Shown here: one piece after another, positions 1-45,860 of the stretch
How positions within the stretch are numbered: the first letter of the stretch is position 1
Layout of the letters: each line of letters opens with the position of its first letter
Assembly (NCBI GenBank): GCA_016199625.1
Contig: JACQGI010000039.1
Coordinates: forward strand, 2,379 to 66,378
DNA from: Acidobacteriota bacterium
GTDB taxonomy: Bacteria; Acidobacteriota; Vicinamibacteria; Fen-336
Direction of reading: 5' to 3'
DNA length: 64,000 nt
The notes under the pieces: model-generated
The model's database searches: none
Seen by the model: the letters and a program-made list of their open reading frames with translations, nothing else
Told to the model about the DNA's origin: nothing
Program-made: the position numbers and the translations under genes

Positions 1-1310
1 CCGCCGCCGCCCACGCGACCGCTCACGCGGTCGGGAGACGACTCGGTGATCGAGAGCTCGGGCAGATCCACTCGCACCTCGCCGGGGCGGGCGGAGGCCA
101 CCAAGTCGAAGCGGCTTCCCCCGGGGACCTCGAGGCGGATCGCTCCGTGAACGCAGGACACTTGCAGCGGATCGGTGAGGGGAGCTTCGGGAACGAGCTC
201 CGCGCCGCCGCGCCGGTTCTCGACGACCACGGCGCCCTGAAATCCCTCGAGGACGACGTCGTCCCCCGCGGCCTCGACCCGCGCCCCCCTGCGGAGGTTC
301 CGGCCCCGCACGCCGCCGTGCTCGACCTTCACGTCCACCGGCCCGCCGATCGACGAGAGGACCACGTCGTTGAAGCTCGCCCGGGCGGTGACCGCGCCCT
401 GGATCTCGGACGCCGCGACCTCGCCGTGCTGCGCGGCGAGCTCCGCATCGCCGCTCACGCGGGTGACTTGCACGTCGCGATAGTCGGTGGCGATCCGCGC
501 GCGGCCGGCCACGTCGGCGGCCCGGACGGCGGCGTGGCGGCCCTCGACCTCGAGGTCGCCCCGCACCTCCTCGGCGACCAGGTCACCGTACGAGACCTGG
601 ACCGAGAGCGCGGCGGAACGAGAGACCGCGACGTCGCCGTGGGACACCTCGAGGGCCGTCCGGCCGCCGACGTCCTTCGCCTCCACGTCGCCGTGCCGGT
701 TGCTGAGAGAGAGCGCCCCGCCTACTGACGAAGCGGCGATCGACCCGTGGCGGTTGCTCGCCCGCGCGTCACCCGCCACGCGGTCGACGGTGACGGAGTC
801 GTAGGAGCTCTCCAGGTCGGCCGAGGCCACGTCGCGAACGTCCACGCGTCCGTGCTCGTTGCGCACCCGCACGACAGTTCCCGGCGGCACGGCCACGGAG
901 AGGTGGGTCTCGAGACCCACGTCGCGCTCGTCGAGCTCCTTCCTGTTGGTGGAAACCCGCACCGTGTCTGCATCGGCGGCCGCCACCGTACGCACGCGCC
1001 GTGAGAACGAGCGCGCCGCATCCTCCGTCGGGAGGAATACGACGGTGCGCAGGCGCGTGCGAACCTCGCCCGGCGCTCCCGCCCAGACCTCGACCGCCCC
1101 GAAGGCGTTCGTCACCTCGACCAACGCGCCCTCGGGGGACGCCACGCGGCCCTCGGTCTCGAAGGCGTACGAAGGGCCGTAGAAGCGACCGCCGAGGATG
1201 CGGCATCCGGTGGCGCCCAGGTGGAGCTCCCCCCGAACGGTCCACGCCACCTCGAGGAAGCCGCCGAAGGCGAGGAGCAGCAAGAGGACGACGACCTTTC
1301 GGGCCCTCAT
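1..1310 (-). CDS. DUF4097-like (LiaF C-terminal-like, beta-helical repeat) membrane-anchored stress protein. Partial: runs off the window start. Absent from the ORF track because no stop codon lies inside the window.
   Basis: Hand translation from the ATG at 1310: MRARKVVVLLLLLAFGGFLEV..., an N-terminal membrane anchor followed by repeated HGDV/HGxV...V motifs typical of DUF4097. Third-position GC is high. Its ATG overlaps the stop of the upstream gene (ATGA). Confidence 0.5.
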   Translation of the reverse strand, partial: MRARKVVVLLLLLAFGGFLEVAWTVRGELHLGATGCRILGGRFYGPSYAFETEGRVASPEGALVEVTNAFGAVEVWAGAPGEVRTRLRTVVFLPTEDAARSFSRRVRTVAAADADTVRVSTNRKELDERDVGLETHLSVAVPPGTVVRVRNEHGRVDVRDVASADLESSYDSVTVDRVAGDARASNRHGSIAASSVGGALSLSNRHGDVEAKDVGGRTALEVSHGDVAVSRSAALSVQVSYGDLVAEEVRGDLEVEGRHAAVRAADVAGRARIATDYRDVQVTRVSGDAELAAQHGEVAASEIQGAVTARASFNDVVLSSIGGPVDVKVEHGGVRGRNLRRGARVEAAGDDVVLEGFQGAVVVENRRGGAELVPEAPLTDPLQVSCVHGAIRLEVPGGSRFDLVASARPGEVRVDLPELSITESSPDRVSGRVGGG

Positions 1311-1498
1311 CGCGTCCCCCGCCGCGACAGAGTGTTGTACAGCTCCAGCGTGCCCCAGAGGACGAGCGTCGTCGGCCACCAGGTCCTCAGCGTCGCCAGG
1401 AGATCGATCCGCCCGAGGTTGGCCAGCGTCCAGAGCACGCCCAGGGCGACGAGGGCGGAGCCGATGACGACGTTCTCGGGCCTAGGGACGACCGGCAT
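1307..1498 (-). CDS. Small membrane protein (DUF5668/LiaF-TM-like motif W-P-x-L-L-I-x-x-G).
   Basis: Hydrophobic 63-aa ORF that shares the WP..LL..G motif with the C-terminus of the upstream protein. It sits in the sigma/anti-sigma operon. The start is uncertain. Confidence 0.35.
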   Translation of the reverse strand: MPVVPRPENVVIGSALVALGVLWTLANLGRIDLLATLRTWWPTTLVLWGTLELYNTLSRRGTR

Positions 1499-2066
1499 CG
1501 CCCGCGTCCTTCCGGCGCCGGACCGAGCCGTAGAGCAGGACCCCGCCCGTCACGATGAGGAGCACCGGCCAGTAGTCCCTCAGGGCGGCGAGATTGAGGT
1601 ATCCGAGGTTGTTCAGGAGCAGGAGCAGCCCGAGGAGCACGAGGCCGCCGCCCCACGCGGGCGACTCCAGGGCGTCCTCCTCCGCGACGGCCGCCCCGCC
1701 TGCCGCGCGGGCGTTCAGGACGTCGGCGCTGCGATAGGCGTCGAGGATGTTGTAGAGATAGAGGAACGGGATCAGGAACGCGAACGGAAAGGGGCCGATC
1801 TCGGCGGTGGCGTAGATGCTCCCCACCAGTCCGAAGAAGAAGACGAGAGCCTTGGCCGGCTGGCCGTTGTAGACCTGTCCGATCCCCGGGAAGATCACGG
1901 AGAGCAACAGCGCGAGGCCCGGCGCCTTCTGCGTTCGAGTCGGTGGGAACGGTCCGGCCGGCGGCGCAGGAAGCGGCGGCATGGGTGGGATCGGCTGCGG
2001 CTTCTCCTCTGCGGCGACGAGATCATCGGTCATTGAGGACGCTCCTTCGACTTCACGAGTCTTCAC
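1482..2066 (-). CDS. Membrane protein with a Pro-rich N-terminus, a TM2-like segment (FPGIGQVYNGQ) and a LiaF/PspC-like C-terminal TM domain.
   Basis: Translated motifs read by eye. Its position directly after the anti-sigma gene, 4-nt overlap at 2063-2066, supports operon membership. Confidence 0.5.
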   Translation of the reverse strand: MKTREVEGASSMTDDLVAAEEKPQPIPPMPPLPAPPAGPFPPTRTQKAPGLALLLSVIFPGIGQVYNGQPAKALVFFFGLVGSIYATAEIGPFPFAFLIPFLYLYNILDAYRSADVLNARAAGGAAVAEEDALESPAWGGGLVLLGLLLLLNNLGYLNLAALRDYWPVLLIVTGGVLLYGSVRRRKDAGDAGRP

Positions 2067-2737
2067 AAGCTACGAGTCCCGTGGGTGGGATGTTCTGGAA
2101 AAGGGCCCGCGGCCGACCGCGTCCCGAGGTCCCCGTGCGGCTCGCGGCCGGTCTTTTTCGAGTCCTGCTCCGCGGCGCGGCGACGCTCGAGGAGCCTGCG
2201 GTAATCCTCCACGCGGTCGTTGACGCGATCGAGGCGGCTGCCGAAGGCGGTCCCGACCACGACGCGGAGGATGCGGAAGTCCTCCACGAGCCGCTCCCTC
2301 CGCTCGGCCAGGTACACCGTCGCGTTGACGGTCCGCTCTTTGAGCCGATCCGCCGCCCGCGTCGCTCCGTCGGACGTCGCGGCGAGCACGAGGCCCGTCA
2401 GGGCGAACGCGGCCGCCGCCGCCACGGCCTGGAGCGGCGCCGGCACGAGCGCGAAGCGCCACGCGATCTCGGGCCGGCGCCACACGCGGCGGACCCGGGA
2501 CGCGACCCCCTGGCGGGACCGCGCCAGAGCCGCCGCAGCCGCGCGCTCGGCCAGCCCGGCGGGGGGCTCGAGGACCGGGTGTGCCCGCAGGGCGGCCACG
2601 ACCTCGCCGACGGCCTCCGACAGCTCGCGACAGGCCGCGCAGGAGACGAGGTGACCCGCGAGCTCCGAGCACAGGGGCTCTTCCAGGAGGCCCTCGCGGT
2701 GATCCGACAGCAACTCCTCGACCCTGCGACAGTCCAT
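2063..2737 (-). CDS. Anti-sigma factor with an N-terminal zf-HC2 putative zinc finger.
   Basis: N-terminus MDCRRVEELLSDHREGLLEEPLCSELAGHLVSCAACRE, the classic H..C..H..CxxC pattern. One central TM segment. ATG at 2737 is preferred; 2752 is an alternative start. Confidence 0.65.
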   Translation of the reverse strand: MDCRRVEELLSDHREGLLEEPLCSELAGHLVSCAACRELSEAVGEVVAALRAHPVLEPPAGLAERAAAAALARSRQGVASRVRRVWRRPEIAWRFALVPAPLQAVAAAAAFALTGLVLAATSDGATRAADRLKERTVNATVYLAERRERLVEDFRILRVVVGTAFGSRLDRVNDRVEDYRRLLERRRAAEQDSKKTGREPHGDLGTRSAAGPFPEHPTHGTRSL

Positions 2738-2744
2738 CGTGGCG

Positions 2745-3311
2745 TCACGCATAGTCGGCCTGGCGTCCGAGCAGGCGCTTCGCCAGCTCGAGGCGTCCGC
2801 GGTTGATGCGGCTCTTGACGGTTCCGAGGGGGAGGCCGAGGGTCTTCGCGATCTCGTCGTACGACAACCCTTCGAGGTCGCAGAGCACGACAGGCTCGCG
2901 GAGCTCCGCTGGCAGGGCCCGCAGGCCGCGGTGAACGAAGCGGACGCGCTCGTCCCGCTCCAGGCTCCGGAGCGGGCTGTCGCCCGGAGCGCGCAGGCCC
3001 TCGAGCATCGCCGGGTCTTCCACCTGCCGCCTCAGCTCCTCTCTGCGCCGCCTGTAGTCGTCGATGGCTTGATGGCGCGCGACGGTGAGCAGCCACGCCC
3101 CGAAGCTGCCTCCCGACTCACGAAAGCCGTCCAGGCTCTGATACACCTTGACGAAGATCTCCTGCGTCAGGTCCTCGGCGGCGTCCACTCGCCCGGTGAA
3201 CCGGTACGCCACGGCGAAGACGCGCCGGGTGTAGCGGGCCACCACCTCTCGCCAGGCCGTCTCGTCTCCCCTCCGACACCGGAGAAGGAGGTCGCCGTCG
3301 GTCTCAGTCAA
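2745..3311 (-). CDS. ECF (sigma-70 family, group 4) RNA polymerase sigma factor.
   Basis: Region 2 (DLTQEIFVKVYQSL) and region 4 (LSYDEIAKTLGLPLGTVKSRINRGRLEL) motifs are present. It lies upstream of the anti-sigma gene. Confidence 0.85.
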   Translation of the reverse strand: MTETDGDLLLRCRRGDETAWREVVARYTRRVFAVAYRFTGRVDAAEDLTQEIFVKVYQSLDGFRESGGSFGAWLLTVARHQAIDDYRRRREELRRQVEDPAMLEGLRAPGDSPLRSLERDERVRFVHRGLRALPAELREPVVLCDLEGLSYDEIAKTLGLPLGTVKSRINRGRLELAKRLLGRQADYA

Positions 3312-3351
3312 GAGGTCGGTCTCTCCCGGCGGCCCGTCGTTCGTCAGGGGG

Positions 3352-3377
3352 AACGCGACGGCGGGCCCCAGGGTTCA
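3352..3377 (-). promoter_or_regulatory. Candidate autoregulated ECF-type promoter (GAACC-N16-CGTT on the - strand).
   Basis: The reverse complement of 3352-3377 reads GAACCctggggcccgccgtcgCGTT, about 40 nt upstream of the sigma start. Confidence 0.25.
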
Positions 3378-3401
3378 GAATTCTCCACGTTTCAGCCGTG
3401 T

Positions 3402-3431
3402 TTGACCCTCCGGCGGAGGCTGTAGTACAGT
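3402..3431 (+). promoter_or_regulatory. Candidate sigma-70 promoter, TTGACC-N18-TACAGT.
   Basis: Read directly in the divergent intergenic region upstream of the UPF0104 gene. Confidence 0.25.
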
Positions 3432-3507
3432 GCGCTCCTGCTCGTCCTCGCGCAGCGGGGGCTATCAAATCCATGAAGAAAAAGGCTTTGCGCGGAGAGA
3501 CTCGAGG

Positions 3508-4623
3508 GTGAGCGGGTCCCGCCGCGGGCGCCTTCTGGCGGCCGGGCTCCTGGCGCTGCTCCTGCTGGGCCTCTTCTTCCGCGGCGTCGACTGGCACGAG
3601 CTGGTCCGGGCGCTGAGGACCGCTCACCCGGGTTGGCTCGCGGCCGTGGTCCTGTCGACGATCCTCGTGTACGCCGCGCGGGCCTGGCGCTGGGGGTACC
3701 TTCTCGCCCCTCTGGCGCGCGTTCCCTTCCCCAGGCTGTTCTCCGCGACGGTGGTCGGCTTCATGACCGGCCTGGTCGTGCCGCGTGCCGGTGAGGTCGT
3801 GCGGCCGTACCTGGTCGCCCGCCGCCACGCCCTCCAGGCGTCCGCCGCCTTCGCATCGATCATCATCGAGCGCCTGGTGGACCTCATCACCGTCCTCGTC
3901 CTGTTCAGTCTCTACCTCTACGTTCTGCCCACGCCGGGGGTTCAGAAGGAGGGGGCGTTGACGACGGAGTTGAAGAGGGCGGGAGTGCTCGTCGCCCTCG
4001 CGGCCATCGCGGTGCTCGCCGTGCTCGTGACCTTCCACGTCCACGCGGAGCGCGCCCTGTCGGTCGTCGACCGGATCCTGCGACGCCTCCCGGAGCGGCT
4101 GGCCGCGCCCGTGAACCACGCCCTGCGGTCCTTCGGCGAGGGGCTCGCGGTGCTCCAGGCGCCCGGGAGGCACCTCGCCGGCATCTTCGCCCAGTCGGTG
4201 CTCGTCTGGCTGCTCATCGCCCTCGGGATCTGGGCCAACAACCGGGCCTTCGGCCTGGACCTGCCGTTCCACACGACTTTCCTGATGCTGGGGTTCCTCA
4301 CCGTCGGAGTGGCCGTCCCGACGCCCGGGATGGTGGGGGGCTTCCACGTGGCCTACCAGCTCGCCCTCACGAAGCCCTACGGTGTCGACCGGGACGTGGC
4401 GGCCGCCGCCGGGATCGCGTGTCACGCCCTCACGAACCTCCCGGTCCTCGTTCTCGGTCTCTGGTTCCTCGGTCGCGAGGGGCTCACGATGGGCCGCGTG
4501 GCGGAGATGGCCGACGACGCTGCGCACAGGGGAAAGGACCACGACGACTCTCACACGGGAAGGCACGAGCATTCGGCTTCCATCCCGGCCCTCGGAGATA
4601 CGAGCGGAGGAGCGGATCGATGA
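3508..4623 (+). CDS. UPF0104 / lysylphosphatidylglycerol-synthase transmembrane-region (flippase-like) family membrane protein.
   Basis: Multi-TM protein with the conserved pattern ...RWxYLLxPL...GFxTGLVVPRAGEVVRPYLVARR... A GTG at 3508 is the likely start. The track ORF 3430 extends upstream into the promoter. Confidence 0.6.
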   Translation: MSGSRRGRLLAAGLLALLLLGLFFRGVDWHELVRALRTAHPGWLAAVVLSTILVYAARAWRWGYLLAPLARVPFPRLFSATVVGFMTGLVVPRAGEVVRPYLVARRHALQASAAFASIIIERLVDLITVLVLFSLYLYVLPTPGVQKEGALTTELKRAGVLVALAAIAVLAVLVTFHVHAERALSVVDRILRRLPERLAAPVNHALRSFGEGLAVLQAPGRHLAGIFAQSVLVWLLIALGIWANNRAFGLDLPFHTTFLMLGFLTVGVAVPTPGMVGGFHVAYQLALTKPYGVDRDVAAAAGIACHALTNLPVLVLGLWFLGREGLTMGRVAEMADDAAHRGKDHDDSHTGRHEHSASIPALGDTSGGADR

Positions 4624-5078
4624 AGTGCCCCTTCTGCGGCCACCTCGAGGACAAGGTCGTGGACTCCCGGGAGAGCAAGGAGGGCGAGGTCATCCGTCGC
4701 CGGCGCGAGTGCCTCGGCTGCGGCAAGCGCTTCACCTCCTACGAGCGGATCGACCAGATCCCCCACATGGTCGTCAAGAAGGACGGCCGCCGGGAGCGCT
4801 TCGACCGGGAGAAGGTCCTCGCGGGACTCCTCAAAGCCTGCGAGAAACGCCCCGTTCCCATCAAGGCCCTCGAGGCGATCGCCGACCGCGTGGAAGCCCG
4901 CGTGCAGGAGAGCCCGGACCGGGAGGTCCCCACGGCGGAGGTGGGGGAGTTTCTCATGGAGCAGCTCCGGGAGCTGGACAAGGTAGCCTTCGTCCGGTTC
5001 GCCTCCGTCTACCGCGAGTTCAAGGACGTGGACCAGTTCATGGCCACGCTGAAGGGGCTGCTGGAGACCCGGGAGTAG
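4620..5078 (+). CDS. nrdR: Transcriptional repressor NrdR.
   Basis: MKCPFCGHLEDKVVDSRESKEGEVIRRRRECLGCGKRFTSYER, the zinc ribbon plus ATP-cone arrangement. ATGA overlap with the previous gene. GGAGG sits 10 nt upstream of the ATG. Confidence 0.85.
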   Translation: MKCPFCGHLEDKVVDSRESKEGEVIRRRRECLGCGKRFTSYERIDQIPHMVVKKDGRRERFDREKVLAGLLKACEKRPVPIKALEAIADRVEARVQESPDREVPTAEVGEFLMEQLRELDKVAFVRFASVYREFKDVDQFMATLKGLLETRE

Positions 5079-5097
5079 GGCTTCCCGGCCGCCCGCC

Positions 5098-6438
5098 TCA
5101 TTCCCGCTTCTGGTTCATGCGGAACTGGAGGTACGTCTCGCCGACCTTGATCACGTCGCCCTCGGCCAGCGGGTGCTTGGCCACGCGACGCTCGTTCACG
5201 AACGTGCCGTTGGTGCTCTTGAGATCCAGGAGCACGTAGCGCCCGTCCTCGGGGCGGATGCGGCAGTGCTCGCTCGAGACCGAGACGTCCTCGAGGACGA
5301 TGTCGTTGAGCTTGGCGCGGCCCAGTGACGTGGCGCTCTGGCGGTTGAGGCTGAACACCATCCCCGATCCCGGCCCGCTGGTGACCGCCAGCACCGGCTG
5401 CTCGCGCAGCGTGACCGTTTTCTCGAGGTACTCCTCGGTGAGGTCCATCCGCGCGAGCACCGTGTCGGGGATCTCGTCCCCGCGGCGTGTGCGGCCCTCC
5501 CCGAGGCCATCGACGGGCGCCGAGGCGCCCGTCGAGCAGAACGCACAGGCGGCGTGGGGGCCCGCGAGCGGGCGGCCGCACGTCGCGCACGGAGGCGCCG
5601 GCCGGCGTCGCAGGGCGAGGACGCCGACGGCGGCCACGCCGAGCACGAGCCCGACCCCGACGGCGAGCCACGGCCAGGCCGTCCGGTGCCGGGCGCCGAT
5701 CGGAGGGGTGGCGGGCCCGCCCGCCGACGCTGCGTGCGGCTCGGCCGCTCCGGACGCGTGCGCGGTCGCGCTCCGCCCGTCGGCCGGCGTGGTGCCCGCG
5801 GACTCGGGCGCCGCGAGCAGACGCGCCGCCAGCACCGCCCCCGTGGCCTCCGGGCCCGGCAGGTATTCCCCGGCCGTGAGCTTGGCGATGCGCCGCAACA
5901 CGCGTTCGCGCACGCGGCCGATGCCGACGGTGAACACCGGGATCGACGTCTGCTGGGCGACGGCGAGGGCGTCTTCGAGCTGGAGCGCGCTGTTCTCGTC
6001 CTTTCCGTCGGTGACGAGGAGGATCGCCCGGCGCGGCGAGGGCGCGTCGCGGAGGTAGCGGCTCGCGTCGTACAAGGCATCGTGGAGTGCCGTGAAGCGC
6101 CCGGAGATCGTGACGTGCTCGATCGCGGCGCGAACCTCCTCGGCGCGCGACGTCCGAGGGAGCACGAGGCGGGCCGCGTCGTCGAAGGTGAAGACGGCGA
6201 CCTCGCTCCCGGAGGGGAGGCTCTCGAGAAGCCCCGCCGCCAGAGCCCGCGTCCGCTCGAGGTCCTCGAGACGCAAGCTGCCGGAGGTGTCGAGGACGAG
6301 GCCGACGACGACCGGTGGCCCCTCGTCGCTCGGCGCCGGGAAAGCGCTCAAGGCAAGGAGGGCCAGGCCGAGGAGGACGCCTCGCCGCAGCTCGTGCCGC
6401 CTCCCAGCGCATGTCACGGAACTACAGTGTCTTAGCAC
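5098..6438 (-). CDS. VWA domain - TM - zinc ribbon - FHA domain transmembrane signalling protein.
   Basis: Signal-like N-terminus. VWA MIDAS motif DTSGS in VVVGLVLDTSGS...LLVTDG. TM segment WPWLAVGVGLVLGVAAVGVLAL. CATCGRPL...CAFC ribbon. C-terminal FHA domain (GRAKLNDIVLEDVSVSSEHCRI...TNGTFVN). Confidence 0.7.
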   Translation of the reverse strand: MLRHCSSVTCAGRRHELRRGVLLGLALLALSAFPAPSDEGPPVVVGLVLDTSGSLRLEDLERTRALAAGLLESLPSGSEVAVFTFDDAARLVLPRTSRAEEVRAAIEHVTISGRFTALHDALYDASRYLRDAPSPRRAILLVTDGKDENSALQLEDALAVAQQTSIPVFTVGIGRVRERVLRRIAKLTAGEYLPGPEATGAVLAARLLAAPESAGTTPADGRSATAHASGAAEPHAASAGGPATPPIGARHRTAWPWLAVGVGLVLGVAAVGVLALRRRPAPPCATCGRPLAGPHAACAFCSTGASAPVDGLGEGRTRRGDEIPDTVLARMDLTEEYLEKTVTLREQPVLAVTSGPGSGMVFSLNRQSATSLGRAKLNDIVLEDVSVSSEHCRIRPEDGRYVLLDLKSTNGTFVNERRVAKHPLAEGDVIKVGETYLQFRMNQKRE

Positions 6439-6570
6439 GCCCCCCTCATCAGCGTCAACGCCGCGTCCTTGGGGCAGGTGTGGCTGCCAAGCTACAATGG
6501 ACCGCTTCGCCCGTTCCCGGCCCGAGGTCGTGGAGGGCCCCAGGTTCTCACGGCTCCAAGGACGGGGTGA

Positions 6571-8787
6571 GTGATCGGGCGCACGTCACCGATGGCCTCG
6601 CGCCCTTCGTTCCGGAACAACGCCCGTCTGGTTCTCCTCGCCACACTCGGGGCGCTCGGCGTGTTCCTCCTGGTCGAGGTCCTGCTCCGGAAGAGCCGCG
6701 ACTTCTCCCCGGACTTTCTCGCCTCGGTGCTCCTGTACGGGCTCACGGTCCTGAACCTGACGCTGCTCCTCGTCCTTCTGTTCGTGCTCGGCCGGAACCT
6801 CGTCCGTGTGCTCATGGAGCGCCGACGCGGCGTTCTCGGGGCGCGATTCCGCATGCGCCTCATGCTGGTCTTCCTGCTGATGGCCATCGGACCGTCGCTG
6901 CTGCTGCTCGTCGTCGGAAGCGACCTCATCCAGCAGACCGTGGATCGATGGTTCAACGTGGACGCCGAGCGCCTGCTCTCCTCCTCGAAGGCCCTCGAAG
7001 CCGCCCTCCGGCACACCTCGCTGGAGCGCTGCCGCGTGCTGGCGCGCGTGCTGGCTCGCGAGGTGGAAGCCCGGCGGCTGCTGGAGCCGGCGGGGCAGGG
7101 ACGCCTGCGGCGCACGATCGAGGTACGCCGGCGCGAGCTGCACATCGACATGGTCAACGTCGTCTCTCGCGACGGCGAGCTCCTGGCGGTGGTGGACCCG
7201 CGGCTCTCGGGCCTGCCCCTGGACACCGCTTCGGGGGACCCCGTCGTCGAGGTCGCTCTCTCCGGACGAGAGGTCACGGCCTCGATGCCCGGCGGGGCGG
7301 GGGAGCTCGTGCGGGCGGGCGCGCCGGTCCGGGACGGCTCAGGTACGGTTCGGGGCGCCGTGCTGGTCTCCATGCTGCTCCCCGCCGAGGTCGCGGCGGA
7401 GGCGCGGGAGGTGCAGGAGCGTTACGACAAGTTCCGCAAGGCACAGGCCTTCCGCGAGCCCATCAAGGCGGTGTACCTGTCCCTGTACCTGTTCCCGGCC
7501 CTGCTCATCCTCTTCGGAGCCGTGTGGCTGTCGCTCTACCTGGCCCGGAGGATCACGGTGCCCCTGAGGCTCGTGGCTGAGGGGGCCGAGCGCATCGCCG
7601 CGGGCGAGCGCGGCGTGCGGGTGGACTTCCCGGCGGGAAACGACGAGTTCGCCGCCCTCATCGCCTCCTTCAACCGGATGTCGGAGCGCCTCGCGCGCAG
7701 CGAGGAGGAGGTGGAGCACAGCCGCGCCGGTCTCCAGAGGAAGAACGAGGAGCTCGAGGAACGACGGCGTCTCATGGAGACGGTCCTCGAAACCGTCGGC
7801 ACGGGAGTTGCGGTCGTGGACGCCGAGTCCACCGTGACGGCGGTCAACGCGGCCGCCTGCCGGCTCCTCGGCGTGGACGCGGAGATCGTCGGCCGCCGCG
7901 CCGAGGAGGCGCTGACAGGACCGGGGCGCGGCGAGATCCTCTCTCTCGTCCAGCGCCTGCTGTCGGGACGCACCGGCCGCCAGGAGCGAGAGGTTCAGCT
8001 CCCGTCCCGCGGGAGGGACCGACACCTGGCGGTGACCGTCGTACCGCTGCCGGGCCCGCCGGGGGCTCCGCCCGGGGCCGTCCTCGTCCTCGACGACCTC
8101 ACGCCTCTCATGCGAGCGCAGAAGGTGGCCGCTTGGGGAGAGGTGGCCCGCAAGCTGGCTCACGAGATCAAGAACCCCCTGACGCCCATCCAGCTCTCGG
8201 CCCAACGGATCCGCAAGGCCCACCTGAAGTCCGCCCCCGACTTCGAGAAGGTGGTAGCCGAATGCACCGCCTCGATCGTGCAGGAGGTGGACGCCCTCAA
8301 GAACCTCGTGGACGAGTTCGCCCAGTTCGCCCGTCTGCCGGCGGCGAACCTCGTCCCGTCCTCGCTTCACGACGTGGTGGACCAGGCGCTCTCCCTCTAT
8401 GACGGCCTGTTCGCCGACGTCCGGTTCGACCGTCGCTACGCCCCCGACCTGCCGGCGCTGCGCCTCGACGCGGACCAGATGAAGCGCGTCGTCATCAACC
8501 TCGTGGACAACGCCATCGAGGCCACGGGGAGGAAGGGGAGCGTCGTGATCTCCACGGAGTACGACCGGGAGCAGGGCCGCGTGCGGCTGGGGGTCGCCGA
8601 CGACGGGCCCGGCATCCGCCCCGAGGACCGCGACAAGCTCTTCGTCCCCCACTTCTCCACGAAGAAGCGGGGCAGCGGCCTGGGCCTGGCCATCGTCAGC
8701 CGCATCGTCCAGGAGCATCACGGCGTCATCCGCCTGGAGGACAACGTGCCGCGTGGGGCGCGGTTCGTCGTGGAGTTCCCGGCATGA
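6571..8787 (+). CDS. ntrY: NtrY-like sensor histidine kinase (TM, HAMP, PAS, HisKA, HATPase).
   Basis: HisKA H-box HEIKNPLTPIQLSAQ, HAMP and PAS-like segments, and G1/G2 ATPase boxes (DDGPGI, GSGLGLAIV). The start may be the internal MASRP. Confidence 0.75.
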   Translation: MIGRTSPMASRPSFRNNARLVLLATLGALGVFLLVEVLLRKSRDFSPDFLASVLLYGLTVLNLTLLLVLLFVLGRNLVRVLMERRRGVLGARFRMRLMLVFLLMAIGPSLLLLVVGSDLIQQTVDRWFNVDAERLLSSSKALEAALRHTSLERCRVLARVLAREVEARRLLEPAGQGRLRRTIEVRRRELHIDMVNVVSRDGELLAVVDPRLSGLPLDTASGDPVVEVALSGREVTASMPGGAGELVRAGAPVRDGSGTVRGAVLVSMLLPAEVAAEAREVQERYDKFRKAQAFREPIKAVYLSLYLFPALLILFGAVWLSLYLARRITVPLRLVAEGAERIAAGERGVRVDFPAGNDEFAALIASFNRMSERLARSEEEVEHSRAGLQRKNEELEERRRLMETVLETVGTGVAVVDAESTVTAVNAAACRLLGVDAEIVGRRAEEALTGPGRGEILSLVQRLLSGRTGRQEREVQLPSRGRDRHLAVTVVPLPGPPGAPPGAVLVLDDLTPLMRAQKVAAWGEVARKLAHEIKNPLTPIQLSAQRIRKAHLKSAPDFEKVVAECTASIVQEVDALKNLVDEFAQFARLPAANLVPSSLHDVVDQALSLYDGLFADVRFDRRYAPDLPALRLDADQMKRVVINLVDNAIEATGRKGSVVISTEYDREQGRVRLGVADDGPGIRPEDRDKLFVPHFSTKKRGSGLGLAIVSRIVQEHHGVIRLEDNVPRGARFVVEFPA

Positions 8788-8796
8788 GGAGTGTGC

Positions 8797-10206
8797 ATGC
8801 GTGAATCCATCCTGATCGTCGACGACGAGACGGGCGTGCGGACCTCGCTCCAGGGGATCCTCGGAGACGAGGGGTACCAGGCCGACGCCGTGGAGAGCGG
8901 TGAGGCGTGCCTCGCGGCCCTCGAGAAGGGCCGGTACGATCTGGTGCTCCTCGACGTGTGGCTGCCCCAGATGGACGGCCTGACGACCCTCTCGCGGATC
9001 CGGACCCTCGACCCGGACCTCCCGGTCGTCGTCATCTCGGGACATGGGAGCATCGAGACCGCAGTCAAGGCCGTGCGGATGGGGGCCCAGGACTTCGTCG
9101 AGAAGCCCCTCTCCCTCGAGAAGACGCTCCTCGTCGTCAGGAACGCCCTGCGACAGCGGAAGCTCGAGGCCGAGAATCGCGCCCTCAAACAGCAGGTCGA
9201 GCACCGCTGGGTCATGGTGGGCGAGAGCGCAGGGCTGCGGGCGCTCCGGGCGGAGATCGCACAGGCGGCCCCCTCCAACGGCCGCGTCCTCATCTACGGA
9301 GAGAACGGCACCGGCAAGGAGCTCGTGGCGCGCAACATCCACGTCGGGAGCCTCCGGGCCGACGGCCCCTTCGTCGAGGTGAACTGTGCGGCGATCCCCG
9401 AGGAGCTCATCGAGAGCGAGCTGTTCGGCCACACCCGCGGGGCTTTCACCGGCGCCCTCACGACCAAGAAGGGGAAGTTCGAGCTGGCCGACGGGGGGAC
9501 TCTGTTCCTCGACGAGGTGGGGGACATGAGCCTCAAGACCCAGGCCAAGGTCCTGCGGGTCCTCCAGGAGCAGAAGGTGGAACCGGTGGGCGGGACCAGC
9601 TCGATCACCGTCGACGTCCGCGTCATCGCCGCCACCAACAAGCGCCTCGAGAACGAGATCCGCAAGGCGGCCTTTCGCGAGGACCTCTACTTCCGCCTGA
9701 ACGTCATCCCGTTCCAGGTGCCGCCCCTGCGGGACCGCCGCGAGGACGTCCCGCTCCTCGCGCGCCACTTCATCGCCGAGCTCTCGGCCGAGTACGGCAA
9801 GCGCCCGAAGGACCTCGCCGCGGAAGCCCTCGACGTCCTTCTGGCCCATCACTGGCCGGGCAACGTGCGTGAGCTCCGGAACATCATCGAGCGGCTCGTC
9901 ATCATGACTCCCGGCGATCGGATCGAGGCCCGCCACCTGCCCGGCGGACTGCTCGCCGGGACCCCGCCTGGAGAGCCGTCGGCGTCCGGAGGCTCCCCGC
10001 CACCTCTCCTCGGCGAGTTCCCGTCGCTGGCCGCCGCCCGCGAGGATTTCGAGAAGCGCTACATCTGGAAGAAGTACCAGGAGTGCGGCGGCAACATGAG
10101 CCGCACCGCCGAAATGCTGCAAGTGGAGCGTTCGAACCTCTACAGGAAGATGAAGGCCTACGGGCTCCTGCCTGCGCGGCGAGGAGAGGCCCTCGAGTCC
10201 GCCTGA
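8797..10206 (+). CDS. ntrX: Sigma-54-dependent response regulator (NtrX/NtrC family).
   Basis: Receiver domain (ILIVDDE...D54-like). AAA+ domain with the GAFTGA motif (GHTRGAFTGAL) and a Walker A box (GENGTGKE). C-terminal Fis-type HTH. GGAG sits 6 nt upstream of the ATG at 8797. Confidence 0.8.
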   Translation: MRESILIVDDETGVRTSLQGILGDEGYQADAVESGEACLAALEKGRYDLVLLDVWLPQMDGLTTLSRIRTLDPDLPVVVISGHGSIETAVKAVRMGAQDFVEKPLSLEKTLLVVRNALRQRKLEAENRALKQQVEHRWVMVGESAGLRALRAEIAQAAPSNGRVLIYGENGTGKELVARNIHVGSLRADGPFVEVNCAAIPEELIESELFGHTRGAFTGALTTKKGKFELADGGTLFLDEVGDMSLKTQAKVLRVLQEQKVEPVGGTSSITVDVRVIAATNKRLENEIRKAAFREDLYFRLNVIPFQVPPLRDRREDVPLLARHFIAELSAEYGKRPKDLAAEALDVLLAHHWPGNVRELRNIIERLVIMTPGDRIEARHLPGGLLAGTPPGEPSASGGSPPPLLGEFPSLAAAREDFEKRYIWKKYQECGGNMSRTAEMLQVERSNLYRKMKAYGLLPARRGEALESA

Positions 10207-10286
10207 CGACGCCTGCGCCCGTCGGGGCGAACCTCCCCCCTGGCGCGTCCTTCGCTCAGGTGCTGCCTCCTCAAGCACTTCGGCCT

Positions 10287-10316
10287 TGAAACGGAGCTGC
10301 GCTTTTCCCCATAATG
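10287..10316 (+). promoter_or_regulatory. Sigma-70-like promoter, TTGAAA-N18-CATAAT.
   Basis: Read directly in the sequence. A GGGGGAGG Shine-Dalgarno and a TTG start at 10346 lie about 25 nt downstream. Confidence 0.35.
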
Positions 10317-10345
10317 GGCCCGGAGCACGGAGGATCGGGGGAGGC

Positions 10346-10894
10346 TTGGAGGCGAGCCGGGAGGACCGGATCCGGAACCTGCGCACCGAAGGCTGGACTC
10401 TTCTCGACGCGGGCCGGAGCCGGGAGGCTGCCGACGCCTTCGGACGCGTCGTGCTCCAGGACCCCGCCGACGCCGAGGCGCGACGGGGCCTCGACGATGC
10501 TCGCGCGGCGGTAGCCGAAGAGGCCCGACTGCTGGACCAGCTCCTCGACCAGGCGATCCGCGCCACCGACACCGGCGACCGGGGGCAGGCGCGCCAGCTC
10601 CTGGAAGACGTCATCGTGCGTGGCGGGGATCGTGACCGGGCTCTCGCACTGCTCGACCGCCTCGAGGACCACGTCGGCCGGGTCGAGGCCAGACCGCCCG
10701 CCGGTGAGGCTGCGGCTTCCTCGCCGGTCCCGGCCGCGCGGCGCGCGCGCTCCCGGTCGCGGCGGATCTTCGCCGTGGCCTGGGCGTGTCTGTTCGCCTT
10801 GCTCGCCGCCGGGATCGCGGTGAGCTGGGAGCGGCTCCTGGAGAACCTGGTCCGTACGCCCGGCCCCAGGTCCCAGGCAGGGGATCGCCGGTGA
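10346..10894 (+). CDS. TPR-like helical protein with a C-terminal TM anchor (hypothetical).
   Basis: A TTG start with a strong RBS. TPR-like helix pairs are followed by the hydrophobic segment IFAVAWACLFALLAAGIAV. The stop overlaps the next gene start (GTGA). Confidence 0.4.
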   Translation: MEASREDRIRNLRTEGWTLLDAGRSREAADAFGRVVLQDPADAEARRGLDDARAAVAEEARLLDQLLDQAIRATDTGDRGQARQLLEDVIVRGGDRDRALALLDRLEDHVGRVEARPPAGEAAASSPVPAARRARSRSRRIFAVAWACLFALLAAGIAVSWERLLENLVRTPGPRSQAGDRR

Positions 10895-11835
10895 GCTGCC
10901 CCGCCTGCGGCGGCGCACTCAAAGGCGGCCAGGACCGCTGCCCCGCGTGTGGCACCATCGTCTCGCCGCCCGTCGAGGGCTCCCTCGCTCCCGATCCCCT
11001 GGCCGGCGCCCCTCCCCGCGAGAAGGTCGAGCCCCTGCGGGAGATCCCGGGGCTCAGGAAGCGCGAGAAGACCTGGAAGGACGAGGTGCGTGAGCGGGTC
11101 CGGCAGCGTCGCCGAACCCGCACCGGTGAGGAGGATCTCCCCCTTTTCCGCGAGACCCAGGACGAGGACTCGCCCGAGGAGCCCGGCGCACCTCGGCCCC
11201 GGCCGAGCGAGTCGGCGCACCCGGATCCCTATGCCGTCACCGAGCGCGTCCAGCTCGAGCGGCTGGACGAGATGGTGGCCGACCTCGCGCTCCGACCGGA
11301 GCCGCGCCCCACCCTGGACGAGGACGCCGTCGGCGACGGGTCCGCCGAGGAAGGAGACGTCGGGCGTTCACCCGCGGCGGACTGGCCACGCGGAGTCGAG
11401 GTCGCGCCGGCGTTGCCTCCCGTCGAGCGGCCGGCTCATCCGGGCGAACGGCTCCAGGCGGCCGTCGTGGATCTCGCGTTGCTCGTCGCCCTATGGTCCG
11501 TGGTCGTCTACTTCGCCGGTCGTGCCGCCCAGGTTCCCGTCGAGGAGCTGCTCCCTGCCTGGCCGTACCTCGGCGCGTACCTCGCGACCCTCGGCCTCGT
11601 CTACGCCGCGTATTTCACCGGGACGACGGGTCAGACGCTCGGCAAGATCGTGACCGGGCTGCGCGTCGTGGACACGGCAGGCCGACCTCCCGGATACGCC
11701 CGCGCTTTCCTCCGTGCCGGCGTGGCAGCGCTGGGGATCCTCACGGTTGGCGCCGGGCTCCTCCCCATGCTCGTCGACCCCGCCCGGCGGGCCCTTCACG
11801 ATCGGCTGCTCCGCACCCGGGTCGTGAAGTTCTGA
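10891..11835 (+). CDS. RDD-family membrane protein with an N-terminal double-CxxC zinc ribbon.
   Basis: CPACGGALKGGQDRCPACG ribbon, an acidic/Pro-rich linker, and a C-terminal RDD domain (ERLQAAVVDLALLVALW...HDRLLRTRVV). Confidence 0.6.
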   Translation: MSCPACGGALKGGQDRCPACGTIVSPPVEGSLAPDPLAGAPPREKVEPLREIPGLRKREKTWKDEVRERVRQRRRTRTGEEDLPLFRETQDEDSPEEPGAPRPRPSESAHPDPYAVTERVQLERLDEMVADLALRPEPRPTLDEDAVGDGSAEEGDVGRSPAADWPRGVEVAPALPPVERPAHPGERLQAAVVDLALLVALWSVVVYFAGRAAQVPVEELLPAWPYLGAYLATLGLVYAAYFTGTTGQTLGKIVTGLRVVDTAGRPPGYARAFLRAGVAALGILTVGAGLLPMLVDPARRALHDRLLRTRVVKF

Positions 11836-11857
11836 CGACTCGGCGCGCTCGCCCCAC

Positions 11858-13498
11858 GTGGACGCACTCACACTCGACCGGCTCCTCGCCGAACTCCGAC
11901 CCGCTCTCTGCGGCCGCCATCTCGGCCGGCCGCGCGGCGTCGGCCCCCACGCGGTAGCCTTCGAGATCTCGGGAAGCAGGGACCGGCGGCTCTGGCTCGA
12001 CGTGTCGCGGGGCACCGCGGGCCTCTACCTGCTCTCCCGCGACGAGGTCCGCGCACTCGAGGACACGGACGAGGAGAGCTGGCCCGGCCGGACGCGCCAG
12101 GCGATCCTCCTTCTACGGAAGCACGTCGGCGGGACCCGCATCCGGGAGGTCCTGCGTGTGCCCGGAGAGCGCGCGCTCCTCGTCGAGGCCGGCGACGTCC
12201 GGCTCTCCCTCCGGATCTCGGGCCCCGCGCCCGCCCTGACGCTCGCCGTCGCCGAGGTTCCAGTGGCGACGCTGGGCGACGGGCCACCGGCCTGGCCGCC
12301 GCGCCCCCCGGCCCCGGAGCGGGAGTGGGACCGCGTGGACCCGGAAGCGGTGGCCGCCGCGGCGGCGGCGGCCACCGCGAAAGGGCACACGCGCCGACGG
12401 GCCGTGCTGTCGGCCTGTCCGTCCTTCGGCCCGCTGCTGGCCGGCCTCGTCGGCGAGTCGCCTGCGAGCGTCTCGGCCCTGCGCGCTCGCCTCGCCACGC
12501 CGCGGCCGACCGTCCTGCTGCCGGGACCGCTGCAGGACTGCCACGACGCCGACCTGGCCGACGGCCCGGCCGATCTCGGGCCGATTCCGATCGAGGGCCG
12601 TGTGGCGCACCACCCGCCCTCCTGGACCGAGGCCGCCGCGACGTTCCTCTGCCTGCGCCGCCGGGGGGAGCTCTTCGGGCGGGCGCGGCGCACGGCACTG
12701 GAGTCGGCGCGGCGCGAGATCCGGCGCCTCGTCCGGCTCGAGGCTCACCTCGGCCGCGACGTGGCCGGATTGGCGGATGCGGCTGCCCTGAGGCGCCAGG
12801 GTGAGGCGATCCTCGCGTCGCTCGCCGTGCTGGCTCCGGGTGTCCCTGAAGCGGAGCTGCGCGACCCGTACGAGCCGAGCAGACGGGTGAAGATCTTCCT
12901 GGACCCCCGGCTGAGCGCCCCGGCCAACGCGGACCGCCTGTTCGAGAGGGCCCGTCGCGTCGATCGGGCGCGAGCCCGCATCGCGGATCGGCTCGACGAG
13001 ACACGCCGCGCTCTCGAGGCGGCCCATGCCCACGAGAGGCGCGCCCTCGAGGCCCGGGATCTCCCGGCCCTCCGTTCCGGGGAGAGTCGGGGTCGCCGCT
13101 CGGCGCGGCCGGGGGCGAGCGCGGGCGGCGGACGGCTGCGCTATCTCACCTCGCGCGGGCTGCCCGTCCTCGTGGGCCGAGGGGCCAGGGAGAACCACGA
13201 GCTGACCTTCGGCGTCGCCCGGCCCGACGACCTCTGGCTCCACGTCCGCGATCGCCCCGGAGCGCACGTGATCCTCCGTGACGAGGAGGGACGCGCCGGC
13301 ACCGACGACGTGCGGGAGGCGGCCGAGGTGGCCGCGTTCCACAGCGAGGCGCGGGGGGAGGCGAGCGTGGACGTGCACGTGGCGCGCCGCAAGCACGTGC
13401 GGCCCGCCAGGGGCGGCCCCGGGCGGGTCCTCGTGGGCCACTCCGACACGCTGCGCGTCGCCCCCCGTGACCCTGCGGGTCGGCTCCGGCGGAGGTGA
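11858..13498 (+). CDS. NFACT / RqcH (Rqc2, FbpA)-like protein with a C-terminal DUF814-like domain.
   Basis: The C-terminal region RYLTSRGLPVLVGRGARENHELTF...DLWLHVRDRPGAHVIL matches the NFACT-R/DUF814 pattern. GTG start. The assignment is inferred from motifs alone. Confidence 0.5.
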   Translation: MDALTLDRLLAELRPALCGRHLGRPRGVGPHAVAFEISGSRDRRLWLDVSRGTAGLYLLSRDEVRALEDTDEESWPGRTRQAILLLRKHVGGTRIREVLRVPGERALLVEAGDVRLSLRISGPAPALTLAVAEVPVATLGDGPPAWPPRPPAPEREWDRVDPEAVAAAAAAATAKGHTRRRAVLSACPSFGPLLAGLVGESPASVSALRARLATPRPTVLLPGPLQDCHDADLADGPADLGPIPIEGRVAHHPPSWTEAAATFLCLRRRGELFGRARRTALESARREIRRLVRLEAHLGRDVAGLADAAALRRQGEAILASLAVLAPGVPEAELRDPYEPSRRVKIFLDPRLSAPANADRLFERARRVDRARARIADRLDETRRALEAAHAHERRALEARDLPALRSGESRGRRSARPGASAGGGRLRYLTSRGLPVLVGRGARENHELTFGVARPDDLWLHVRDRPGAHVILRDEEGRAGTDDVREAAEVAAFHSEARGEASVDVHVARRKHVRPARGGPGRVLVGHSDTLRVAPRDPAGRLRRR

Positions 13499-15841: not shown

Positions 15842-15852
15842 AGTAGTCGCCG

Positions 15853-19139: not shown

Positions 19140-19143
19140 CCCG

Positions 19144-43679: not shown

Positions 43680-43686
43680 GCATGCG

Positions 43687-45858: not shown

Positions 45859-45860
45859 GA

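Follow-up and report, generated by a model that had tools for sequence, protein, structure and literature searches.

A predicted type I membrane protein family of Acidobacteriota with an extracytoplasmic VWA domain and a cytoplasmic FHA domain

Introduction

The H1-type VI secretion system (H1-T6SS) of Pseudomonas aeruginosa includes PpkA, a Hanks kinase with a periplasmic VWA sensor that signals to the FHA protein Fha1 (PMC3224232). In Sulfolobus acidocaldarius, the zinc-finger-FHA protein ArnA and the vWA protein ArnB are soluble and bind each other via the phosphorylated C-terminal helical domain of ArnB (PMC6509490). GltG of the Myxococcus gliding machinery is bitopic and combines a cytoplasmic FHA domain with a long periplasmic tether (PMC11761067). 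Finally, vWA-MoxR conflict or chaperone systems comprise an adjacent MoxR-type AAA+ ATPase and a third component (Kaur et al. 2020, PMC7159879).

Here we describe a gene in a 64,000-nucleotide stretch of acidobacterial DNA (the window, to which all positions refer). Its product, termed VWA-FHA protein, may be regarded as analogous to PpkA, GltG and ArnA/ArnB; no characterised VWA-TM-FHA protein turned up in a search of the literature. As in PpkA, a single membrane pass and a periplasmic VWA domain are predicted to go together with Ser/Thr-phosphorylation/FHA signalling (PMC3224232). PpkA, however, is oriented N-in and has a cytoplasmic kinase domain, whereas the VWA-FHA protein carries its own C-terminal FHA reader after a predicted signal peptide. 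A Pkinase search of the VWA-FHA protein gave no match at E ≤ 1, so it does not qualify as a PpkA-type receptor kinase, and T6SS genes were found near its gene neither in the window nor in related loci.

With ArnA/ArnB the protein shares a MIDAS-bearing vWA domain, a predicted Cys4 zinc finger just ahead of the FHA domain, and an FHA domain predicted to be competent for phosphothreonine (pThr) binding (PMC6509490). Whereas the Arn pair consists of separate, soluble proteins of the cytoplasm, the VWA-FHA protein is a single polypeptide with a predicted transmembrane helix between the vWA and zinc ribbon-FHA halves, which therefore cannot meet. Orthology with ArnA/ArnB was rejected, as similarity was found at the domain level only (PDB 8s05_A, VWA, E 2e-4; ArnA 5a8i, E 8e-3).

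GltG and FhaB/FipA (Rv0019c) are similar in having a cytoplasmic FHA domain, one transmembrane helix and a long disordered linker to the extracytoplasmic part. Their FHA domain is N-terminal, however, they lack a signal peptide, and their external domain is TonB-C-like or absent; the VWA-FHA protein has the reversed order and an external VWA domain. Assignment to either family was rejected: the FhaB/FipA model (NCBIfam NF049868, FhaB_Rv0019c) scored 73.5 bits where 125 are needed and matched the FHA part only (profile positions 65-157 of 158), and the GltG model (NCBIfam) gave an FHA-only match of 34.7 bits against a cut-off of 650. A vWA-MoxR system was likewise rejected: no MoxR gene was found in the window flanks or related loci, and the genes that adjoin are ntrY/ntrX, nrdR and LPG_synthase_TM.

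Results

The VWA-FHA protein (446 aa) is encoded on the reverse strand by an open reading frame at 5098..6438 with a GC3 of 0.89, in the order signal peptide-VWA-linker-TM-zinc ribbon-linker-FHA. GTG 6438 was chosen as start codon, with GAGGGGGG lying 1-8 nt upstream of it; a second candidate, GTG 6417 (residue 8), also retains the signal peptide. Comparison with GenBank yielded an entry of 100% identity, P0001, and 533 homologues. The deposited model P0001 begins at TTG 6351 (L30), 29 codons downstream of the full start, and consequently loses the signal peptide; if TTG 6351 were correct, export of the VWA domain would be impossible. The GenBank start is placed too late. Other deposited models of such genes probably also lack the signal peptide, and automated topology or localisation calls on the deposited, signal-peptide-less model would be wrong. 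The missing signal peptide of the deposited model had been overlooked in an earlier, sequence-only reading of this DNA.

The domain layout is supported by Pfam searches, AlphaFold2 (AF2) and Foldseek, and by about 140 homologues; conservation columns were derived from 60 sequences. Residues 1 to ~32 (6343..6438, reverse strand) resemble a signal peptide according to hydropathy and an AF2 helix at residues 14-30, with RRHELRR as n-region and GVLLGLALLALSAF as h-region. The hydrophobic segment spans residues 19-36 and is preceded by four Arg. Of 129 members whose N-terminal sequence is long enough to judge, 127 have such a segment, preceded by 2.3 K/R on average.

The VWA domain (5809..6318, reverse strand) was recognised by the Pfam models VWA, VWA_2 and VWA_3, with PF00092 matching residues 47-186 (E 1.2e-16; 61.8 bits, cut-off 23.8). 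In the AF2 model it adopts a Rossmann-like alpha/beta fold in which strands alternate with helices (pLDDT 95-98). The MIDAS motif D50-T-S52-G-S54 lies at 6277..6291 on the reverse strand, and DxSxS was found in 120 of 121 homologues. D50, S52 and S54, as well as the remaining MIDAS residues T116 (nt 6091-6093) and D144 (nt 6007-6009), both also on the reverse strand, are invariant across 60 homologues, so that the MIDAS is complete. Foldseek matched the domain to BatB (3ibs), 4jdu and CMG2, the first two being the top structural matches. Both the BatA/BatB proteins and the acidobacterial VWFA family TIGR03436 are of the bacterial membrane-associated or exported VWA type to which this domain belongs (NCBIfam E 2.8e-14), but neither family has an FHA domain or zinc ribbon; membership in TIGR03436 was rejected at 53.3 bits against a cut-off of 81.25 (profile positions 62-224 of 324).

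Between the VWA domain and the membrane, residues 211-253 (5680..5808, reverse strand) form a predicted disordered, Pro/Ala/Ser-rich periplasmic stalk (AF2 pLDDT 42-56, no secondary structure) of about 45 residues, which is P-rich in consensus and non-conserved in the 60-sequence alignment. It is followed by a single predicted transmembrane helix (residues ~254-278, WPWLAVGVGLVLGVAAVGVLAL; 5605..5679, reverse strand), identified by hydropathy and an AF2 helix at 256-277, and then by RRR. In essentially all members, a hydrophobic helix of ~22-24 uncharged residues separates the VWA and FHA halves. The number of K+R in the 15 flanking residues averages 4.8 after the helix versus 2.4 before it (138 members); more were found after the helix in 92% of the members and fewer in 0.7%. 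The features of a type I bitopic protein, i.e. signal peptide, one transmembrane helix and positive-inside bias, were thus obtained from hydropathy and charge statistics on 138 members. A periplasmic VWA and a cytoplasmic FHA domain are predicted, and well supported by family-wide evidence, because of the positive-inside rule, the near-universal signal-like segment, and the position of the Cys4 ribbon and FHA domain after the helix; the assignment combines hydropathy and charge bias with the logic of the domains.

On the predicted cytoplasmic side, a membrane-proximal, predicted Cys4 zinc ribbon (C284-A-T-C287-x10-C298-A-F-C301; 5536..5589, reverse strand) is modelled by AF2 as short strands with pLDDT 86-90. 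Its four cysteines are invariant in the 60-sequence alignment, while no Pfam zinc-ribbon model matched at E ≤ 1. The ribbon was kept in 116 of 121 close homologues and is missing from members L016, L027-29, L031, L034, L035 and L041. By sequence comparison it is facultative within the family, a trait that had previously been overlooked.

A predicted disordered linker (residues 302-332; 5443..5535, reverse strand; AF2 pLDDT 40-57) leads to a conserved Thr motif, L333-TEEYLEKT341VTL344 (5407..5442, reverse strand), located directly before FHA strand 1. E336, T341 and L344 are invariant and T334 is conserved to at least 90% in the 60-sequence alignment. The family consensus [LI]-[DE]-x-T-x-x-[LIVF] was found in 137 of 141 members, including ribbon-less ones and ones at 25-35% identity. 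T341 and its surroundings are a candidate phospho-acceptor site and FHA ligand; the motif could also have a purely structural role, extending the FHA fold at its N-terminus.

The FHA domain itself comprises residues ~345-441 (5116..5406, reverse strand), with a PF00498 match at 370-433 (E 3e-20; 72.8 bits, cut-off 20.7). Its pocket residues G373, R374, S388, H391, N410 and G411 show no variation among 60 homologues and fall on the same residues of GarA in the PDB match (E 8e-14). Foldseek placed the domain close to GarA, OdhI and FhaA (TM 0.87-0.94, rmsd ~1 A; AF2 pLDDT 85-98). It is a canonical FHA domain with a beta-sandwich fold by these comparisons and is predicted to be pThr-competent.

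The sequence-only reading had described 5098-6438 as one polypeptide with a signal-like N-terminus, a VWA domain with an intact DTSGS MIDAS motif, one transmembrane helix, a CxxC...CxxC ribbon and a C-terminal FHA phosphothreonine-binding domain, with VWA outside and ribbon plus FHA inside. The open reading frame is a real gene, and each of these elements, as well as the proposed topology, agrees with the data above. Of the checks that this reading had suggested, the domain search returned strong Pfam matches for both VWA and FHA, and the AF2 model shows VWA, transmembrane helix, small ribbon and FHA. Neither outcome that would have spoken against this reading, both domains on one side of the membrane or a lack of VWA/FHA HMM matches, was observed.

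The family is large and spans Acidobacteriota, with ~1,515 clusters at 50% identity matching the VWA-FHA protein at E ≤ 1e-30. Its architecture persists at 25-35% identity in Thermoanaerobaculia, Holophagae, Aminicenantes and one spirochaete MAG. Domain swapping, in which TM-zinc ribbon-FHA would be joined to other periplasmic domains, was rejected, as the matches spanning just residues 277-445 were all full-length SP-VWA-TM-FHA proteins. PADLOC gave no matches, and an anti-phage defence role was therefore rejected.

The gene is convergent with nrdR, as had been noticed before. nrdR (4620..5078, forward strand; translation MKCPFCGH...) encodes a zinc-ribbon/ATP-cone repressor; the two stop codons are 19 nt apart, and syntenic orthologues of nrdR (tblastn identity 84-98%) carry the Pfam domains Zn_ribbon_NrdR and ATP-cone. 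On the other side, a block at 6571..10206 (forward strand) diverges from the VWA-FHA gene across a 132-nt intergenic region. It consists of genes for an NtrY-like histidine kinase (6571..8787, forward strand; orthologues with Pfam NtrY_N/HAMP/PAS/HisKA/HATPase) and an NtrX-like sigma-54 activator (8791..10206, forward strand; orthologues with Pfam Response_reg/Sigma54_activat). The order ntrX-ntrY, divergent VWA-FHA gene, convergent nrdR recurs in ~16 loci of Vicinamibacteria; the VWA-FHA proteins encoded there share only 45-54% identity with the query. In those genomes, the whole block of >20 kb is syntenic, housekeeping genes included, and the ntrYX adjacency is therefore not specific. The linkage is missing from L016-L018 and from all Thermoanaerobaculia, Holophagae and Aminicenantes homologues; the neighbourhood of ntrYX and nrdR is lineage synteny only. 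Further neighbours in Vicinamibacteria are genes for PgpA, LPG_synthase_TM and ECF sigma/LiaF-like proteins (phospholipid and envelope-stress genes), and those of distant homologues encode a MogA-like protein, AsnRS, an M20 peptidase, LuxC, DUF3187 and GAF. In ~40 related loci, tblastn and all-against-all clustering revealed no conserved kinase, phosphatase, MoxR or other partner beside the gene.

Searches of the window for FHA domains with phmmer --max against all six translated frames, with an FHA HMM built for the purpose and with Pfam agreed on two further FHA proteins, an FHA-GAF-cyclase (17463..19139) and a small FHA protein (~45.7-46.18 kb), not the three or more that the sequence-only reading had counted. 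The Hanks kinase that it had reported is present as a Pkinase+PEGA protein at ~40081..42198 (forward strand), the only kinase in the window and 34 kb from the VWA-FHA gene. The implied tie to these proteins found no support: their genes lie 11-40 kb away, and homologues have no conserved partner at their side.

Discussion

Domains, conserved residues, family and topology indicators are established here; from them we infer export as such, the identity of ligand and phospho-partner and the direction of signalling. The most reasonable reading is that an extracytoplasmic ligand-binding domain is coupled to Ser/Thr-kinase signalling, and we hold with fair confidence that the VWA-FHA protein acts as an adaptor or receptor of type I membrane topology, joining a periplasmic ligand to Ser/Thr-phosphorylation signalling. 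In this diderm acidobacterium it would cross the inner membrane once in type I orientation (N-out, C-in), with a Sec-type signal peptide exporting the N-terminal VWA domain to the periplasm. VWA and integrin I domains bind ligands through a metal-coordinated acidic side chain, and the intact MIDAS would bind its ligand in this way, while the flexible stalk of ~45 residues would tether the VWA domain to the transmembrane helix. The cytoplasmic face would present the Cys4 ribbon (optional in the family), the disordered linker, the near-universal T-x-x-[LIV] motif and the canonical FHA domain. The latter may dock where Hanks-type kinases have produced phosphothreonine, be it in other proteins or, in trans, in the T341 motif of the protein itself. 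A periplasmic binding event would thereby be physically linked to Ser/Thr-phosphorylation-dependent assembly in the cytoplasm.

A structural role is unlikely, but it is the alternative that survives best. The protein would then be a tether or scaffold of an envelope-spanning machine, bound constitutively and not regulated by phosphorylation, with the FHA domain holding a complex in the cytoplasm and the VWA domain anchoring a component of the periplasm or outer membrane, after the model of GltG in Myxococcus gliding, YscD/PrgH in type III secretion and TolA-like connectors. YscD/PrgH proteins of type III secretion systems (T3SS) have an N-terminal cytoplasmic FHA-like domain and C-terminal periplasmic ring-building domains, and are encoded in T3SS gene clusters. 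The Pfam model Yop-YscD_cpl (PF16697) does match the VWA-FHA protein (E 2.2e-18; 66.7 bits, cut-off 33.2), and NCBIfam matches to GltG and TagH were obtained with the FHA part only. Consistent with a scaffold are also the long disordered, GltG-like periplasmic stalk (PMC11761067) and the strictly vertical, single-copy-like synteny in Vicinamibacteria beside PgpA, LPG_synthase_TM and the ECF sigma/LiaF-like genes. However, the PF16697 match overlaps the FHA match, the orientation is opposite to that of GltG and YscD with their N-terminal cytoplasmic FHA domain, and the periplasmic domain is a VWA; assignment to YscD/PrgH was rejected on these grounds and on the lack of T3SS genes nearby. Moreover, no secretion, pilus, gliding or Tol-like genes adjoin the gene in the window or in ~40 related loci, and the FHA domain has lost none of its pThr-binding residues, in contrast to the degenerate FHA domains of scaffolds.

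A functional tie to the divergent NtrY/NtrX pair, for example as accessory sensor or as a target co-regulated via the 132-nt region, is improbable. The arrangement is conserved in those ~16 loci at just 45-54% VWA-FHA identity, but so is the >20 kb block with its housekeeping genes, and the linkage is missing from the other loci and classes named above. Neither in the window nor in 12 syntenic loci does the intergenic region contain a sigma-54 -24/-12 element with at least 9 of 11 consensus bases; a TGGCAG-N5-CCTGC string in it has a spacing one off for sigma-54, and a search for a sigma-70-like promoter found none.

Very improbable is a fused, fully cytoplasmic ArnB-ArnA-type module in which the hydrophobic segments are not membrane-spanning, or in which the GenBank start is right and keeps the VWA domain inside: the domain trio of Sulfolobus ArnB (vWA) and ArnA (zinc finger plus FHA) (PMC6509490), the weak PDB matches given above, a Foldseek match to the ArnA FHA domain (E 1.3e-9) and the signal-peptide-less GenBank model speak for it, but essentially all members have the uncharged helix with its strong positive-inside bias and nearly all the signal-like segment, the FHA domain is far nearer to GarA/OdhI than to ArnA, the VWA domain is nearer to BatB/4rck than to 8s05, and the protein has no ArnB-type C-terminal helical phospho-domain.

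The adaptor or receptor reading can be extended by comparison with the anthrax toxin receptors CMG2/TEM8 and integrin I-domain receptors, which share a signal peptide, an external MIDAS VWA domain, a transmembrane helix and a cytoplasmic signalling tail with the architecture predicted here. These receptors are eukaryotic, however, and their tail has neither FHA domain nor zinc ribbon; the VWA domain has Foldseek matches to CMG2 (1sht, 1t6b; E ~1e-9), and the resemblance is architectural, at ~20% identity. It is a doubtful proposal that the VWA-FHA family is the equivalent, in bacteria, of bidirectional receptors of the integrin/CMG2 type. Outside-in, clustering of the MIDAS-VWA domain by ligand would drive phosphorylation of T341-x-x-L and FHA trans-oligomerisation; inside-out, how the VWA domain oligomerises and adheres would be determined by kinase activity. 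If true, this would be a kinase-less, phosphothreonine-read transmembrane device core to acidobacterial envelope biology.

Both the single domains and the logic behind them are familiar, and annotation pipelines already flag the architecture, which makes the finding incremental, not surprising. Acidobacteriota are abundant in soil and have almost no genetics. With an invariant MIDAS, an invariant FHA pocket and a candidate T-x-x-L phosphosite, the family is a clean, testable example. A vertically inherited, phylum-wide pThr reader behind a periplasmic MIDAS-VWA domain would compactly connect the envelope to Hanks-kinase signalling.

Gene model and domain architecture

The VWA-FHA gene is encoded on the minus strand of a window with a G+C content of about 71%; its open reading frame of 446 codons runs from GTG 6438 to a TGA at 5100-5098. 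Its codon-position G+C (GC3 0.89, GC2 0.56) follows the profile typical of real genes in the window, and the other-frame open reading frames overlapping it are high-GC artefacts. A 100% identical MAG protein is deposited in GenBank as 'FHA domain-containing protein [Acidobacteria bacterium]'. That model (P0001, 417 aa) starts at the TTG coding for L30 and so lacks, within 6351..6438 (-), a signal peptide kept by 127 of 129 homologues. Based on the N-termini of homologues, on tblastn matches to homologues which reach back to residues 1-8, and on the presence of GAGGGGGG just upstream of GTG 6438, the long form is favoured, and GTG 6438 is better supported as start codon than the TTG of GenBank.

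[quoted passage not shown] Pfam, hydropathy and AlphaFold2 together bore this out. The Pfam matches are VWA at residues 47-186 (E 1.2e-16; VWA_2 and VWA_3 match too) and, at 370-433, FHA (E 3e-20). The MIDAS string DTSGS occupies residues 50-54 and CATC-x10-CAFC residues 284-301. Between them, at about 254-278, 22-24 uncharged residues make up a hydrophobic stretch, and RRHELRR precedes a further hydrophobic segment at the N-terminus (19-36). The AlphaFold2 model, built from 60 homologues (mean pLDDT 82), comprises (i) a VWA fold at residues 41-210 (pLDDT 95-98); (ii) a disordered stalk at 211-253; (iii) a helix at 256-277; (iv) a small structured ribbon at ~280-305 (pLDDT 86-90); (v) a disordered linker at 306-334; and (vi) an FHA sandwich at ~344-445 (pLDDT 85-98). 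In Foldseek searches against the PDB, the FHA domain matched GarA, OdhI and FhaA (TM 0.87-0.94, rmsd ~1 A); matches of the VWA domain were BatB, 4jdu and CMG2, the anthrax-toxin receptor. On this evidence the protein holds a MIDAS-competent VWA domain and a phosphothreonine (pThr)-competent FHA domain with one TM helix between them.

Family and conservation

Among the candidates scored, 533 were homologues at E<=1e-5; the top 120 are all 390-500 aa long and share the same Pfam pair (VWA and FHA). DxSxS is kept in 120 of 121 sequences, and the TM helix together with CxxC-x10-CxxC in 116 of 121. Four groups of columns are invariant in a 60-sequence alignment: the MIDAS residues D50, S52, S54, T116 and D144; all four ribbon cysteines; G373, R374, S388, H391 and N410 of the FHA pThr pocket; and E336, T341 and L344, which belong to a motif shortly before FHA strand 1. 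Searching 1.84 billion 50%-identity representatives with a profile yielded 1,515 proteins at E<=1e-30, and most of the best 150 matches are full-length, single-stretch proteins of 400-470 aa. Scanning GTDB species representatives revealed full-length members in Vicinamibacteria (45-54% identity), in Thermoanaerobaculia, Holophagae and Aminicenantes (30-35%), and in one spirochaete MAG (25%). The family is large, phylum-wide and uncharacterised, and literature searches retrieved no characterised VWA-TM-FHA protein. Its parts are familiar and unsurprisingly combined, and pipelines already label such proteins 'FHA/VWA domain-containing protein'.

Membrane topology

Topology was judged from family statistics (hydropathy, K+R counts and N-terminal segments). 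In 138 members, the 15 residues beyond the TM helix contain on average 4.8 K+R and those before it 2.4; the count is higher after the helix in 92% and lower in 0.7%. By the positive-inside rule, this bias places the C-terminal side in the cytoplasm. A hydrophobic segment at the N-terminus, with a mean of 2.3 K/R ahead of it, is found in 127 of the 129 members with at least 22 residues ahead of the MIDAS. Many of these segments end Ala-x-Ala-like (e.g. ...LLAPAVAA/HS or ...PARA/ADG), as Sec signal peptides do. Moreover, the predicted Cys4 metal site and the pThr reader are biochemically meaningful only in the reducing cytoplasm, where the kinases are, and both lie on that side of the helix. These independent lines agree on a periplasmic VWA domain with zinc ribbon and FHA domain in the cytoplasm, which is the best-supported prediction and the orientation proposed originally.

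The putative zinc ribbon is an optional accessory

The ribbon is present in ~60% of diverse full-length representatives (about 59/95). It is missing in the homologue loci L016, L027-29, L031, L034, L035 and L041, which keep signal peptide, VWA domain, TM helix, Thr motif and FHA domain. Since several ribbonless lineages retain all other parts, the ribbon is an optional accessory and the core architecture is SP-VWA-stalk-TM-linker-Thr motif-FHA. Located close to the membrane, the ribbon may offer a further surface for protein docking or dimerisation. Combinations of a zinc finger with an FHA domain are also known from ArnA (PMC6509490) and EsrG variants.

Genomic neighbourhood

As the sequence-only reading had stated, the gene and nrdR (~4620..5078, +) converge; their stop codons lie 19 nt apart. 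Between the two genes, a 6-bp inverted repeat, CCGGGA-N8-TCCCGG (5069..5088), overlaps the stop codon of nrdR. A T-run is absent and the terminator scan did not call the repeat, which may be a weak bidirectional hairpin or due to chance. On its other side the gene is divergent from the ntrY/ntrX pair (6571..10206). The region between ntrY and the VWA-FHA gene (6439..6570) yielded no sigma-54 or sigma-70 consensus promoter. It holds TTGGCAGCCACACCTGCC, which resembles a sigma-54 -24/-12 element but spaces GG and GC one base too far apart, and in 12 syntenic loci no acceptable sigma-54 site was conserved.

The order ...RDD-FTCD-ntrX-ntrY <> VWA-FHA >< nrdR-LPG_synthase_TM <> ECF sigma-anti-sigma-LiaF-like-DUF4097... 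is kept in ~16 Vicinamibacteria loci, within a block of >20 kb that includes housekeeping genes and reflects general synteny. In 1..17429 of the window and in the Vicinamibacteria loci L001-L015, the gene is surrounded by phospholipid genes (PgpA, PlsY-like, GpsA, LPG_synthase_TM), the ECF sigma/anti-sigma/LiaF-like/DUF4097 envelope-stress set, ntrYX and nrdR. These envelope-related neighbours are suggestive, but other classes do not retain them. The linkage is gone in L016-L018 and in every distant homologue, whose neighbours are a MogA-like protein, AsnRS, an M20 peptidase, LuxC, DUF3187 or a GAF protein. Across the loci compared, no kinase, PP2C, MoxR or secretion gene consistently adjoins VWA-FHA genes, and PADLOC returned no match. 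The gene's behaviour is that of one that stands alone and is inherited vertically.

A Hanks kinase and at least three other FHA proteins had been noted in the window. The kinase, which carries a PEGA domain, was confirmed at ~40081..42198 (+). The FHA count is the one exception to an otherwise essentially correct observation: --max phmmer, a custom FHA HMM run on the six-frame translation and Pfam agreed on only two further FHA proteins. One is an FHA-GAF-adenylate/guanylate cyclase (17463..19139, +), directly followed by a dCache-HAMP-HD (HD_5, HD-GYP-like) protein (ORF 18970..20955, +; true start probably later); the pair (17463..20955) resembles a unit for cyclic-nucleotide signalling with phosphothreonine gating. 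The other is a small FHA protein (~45.7-46.18 kb, +), which forms a cluster (40081..46181, +) with the kinase and a TPR-PEGA-PDZ protein (43687..45858). The suggested tie of the VWA-FHA protein to these FHA proteins and the kinase found no support, as this sole kinase-FHA neighbourhood of the window is 34 kb away and no adjoining kinase is conserved.

Comparison with known systems

PpkA is a Hanks kinase that has a VWA domain in the periplasm and activates an FHA protein (PMC3224232); GltG places its FHA domain in the cytoplasm and has a TM helix and a long tether in the periplasm (PMC11761067); and ArnA/ArnB are a ZnF-FHA protein plus a vWA protein (PMC6509490). Together with CMG2 and integrins, which are eukaryotic type I MIDAS receptors, they are functional analogues. 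Unlike PpkA, the VWA-FHA protein has no kinase domain; compared to GltG and FhaB/FipA, its orientation is opposite and its external domain different; and whereas ArnA and ArnB are two soluble partners, it is one polypeptide split by the membrane. NCBIfam scores were far below the cut-offs for GltG (34.7 vs 650 bits) and FhaB/FipA (73.5 vs 125 bits), and below that for TIGR03436 (53.3 vs 81.25 bits). The protein thus fails each of PpkA, GltG, FhaB/FipA, ArnA/ArnB and TIGR03436 on at least one defining feature.

A conserved threonine motif and a possible mechanism

In front of FHA strand 1 stands the motif [LI]-[DE]-x-T-x-x-[LIVF] (LEKT341VTL; residues 333-344, window 5407..5442, -), which 137 of 141 members carry, ribbonless ones included and down to 25% identity; the four exceptions keep T-x-x-[LIV] at the same place. 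The motif matches T-x-x-(I/L/V), the classical ligand preference of FHA domains. T341 lies three residues from strand 1, at the sandwich pole opposite the binding loops. Once phosphorylated, it could only be bound in trans, which would point to phospho-dependent oligomerisation. T341 is thus, speculatively, a candidate phospho-acceptor; the motif may also be no more than structural.

We infer a role as type I membrane adaptor or receptor; the general signalling idea of the sequence-only reading is the best-supported interpretation of these predictions. In the periplasm, the VWA domain would recognise a protein or polymer ligand via a metal-coordinated carboxylate; in the cytoplasm, the FHA domain would dock on pThr sites made by Hanks kinases. 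Both binding events would thereby be coupled spatially or allosterically, e.g. by clustering. The most useful by-products are the correction of start codon and signal peptide, the optional nature of the zinc ribbon, and the conserved T-x-x-L motif, which provides a concrete handle for experiments.
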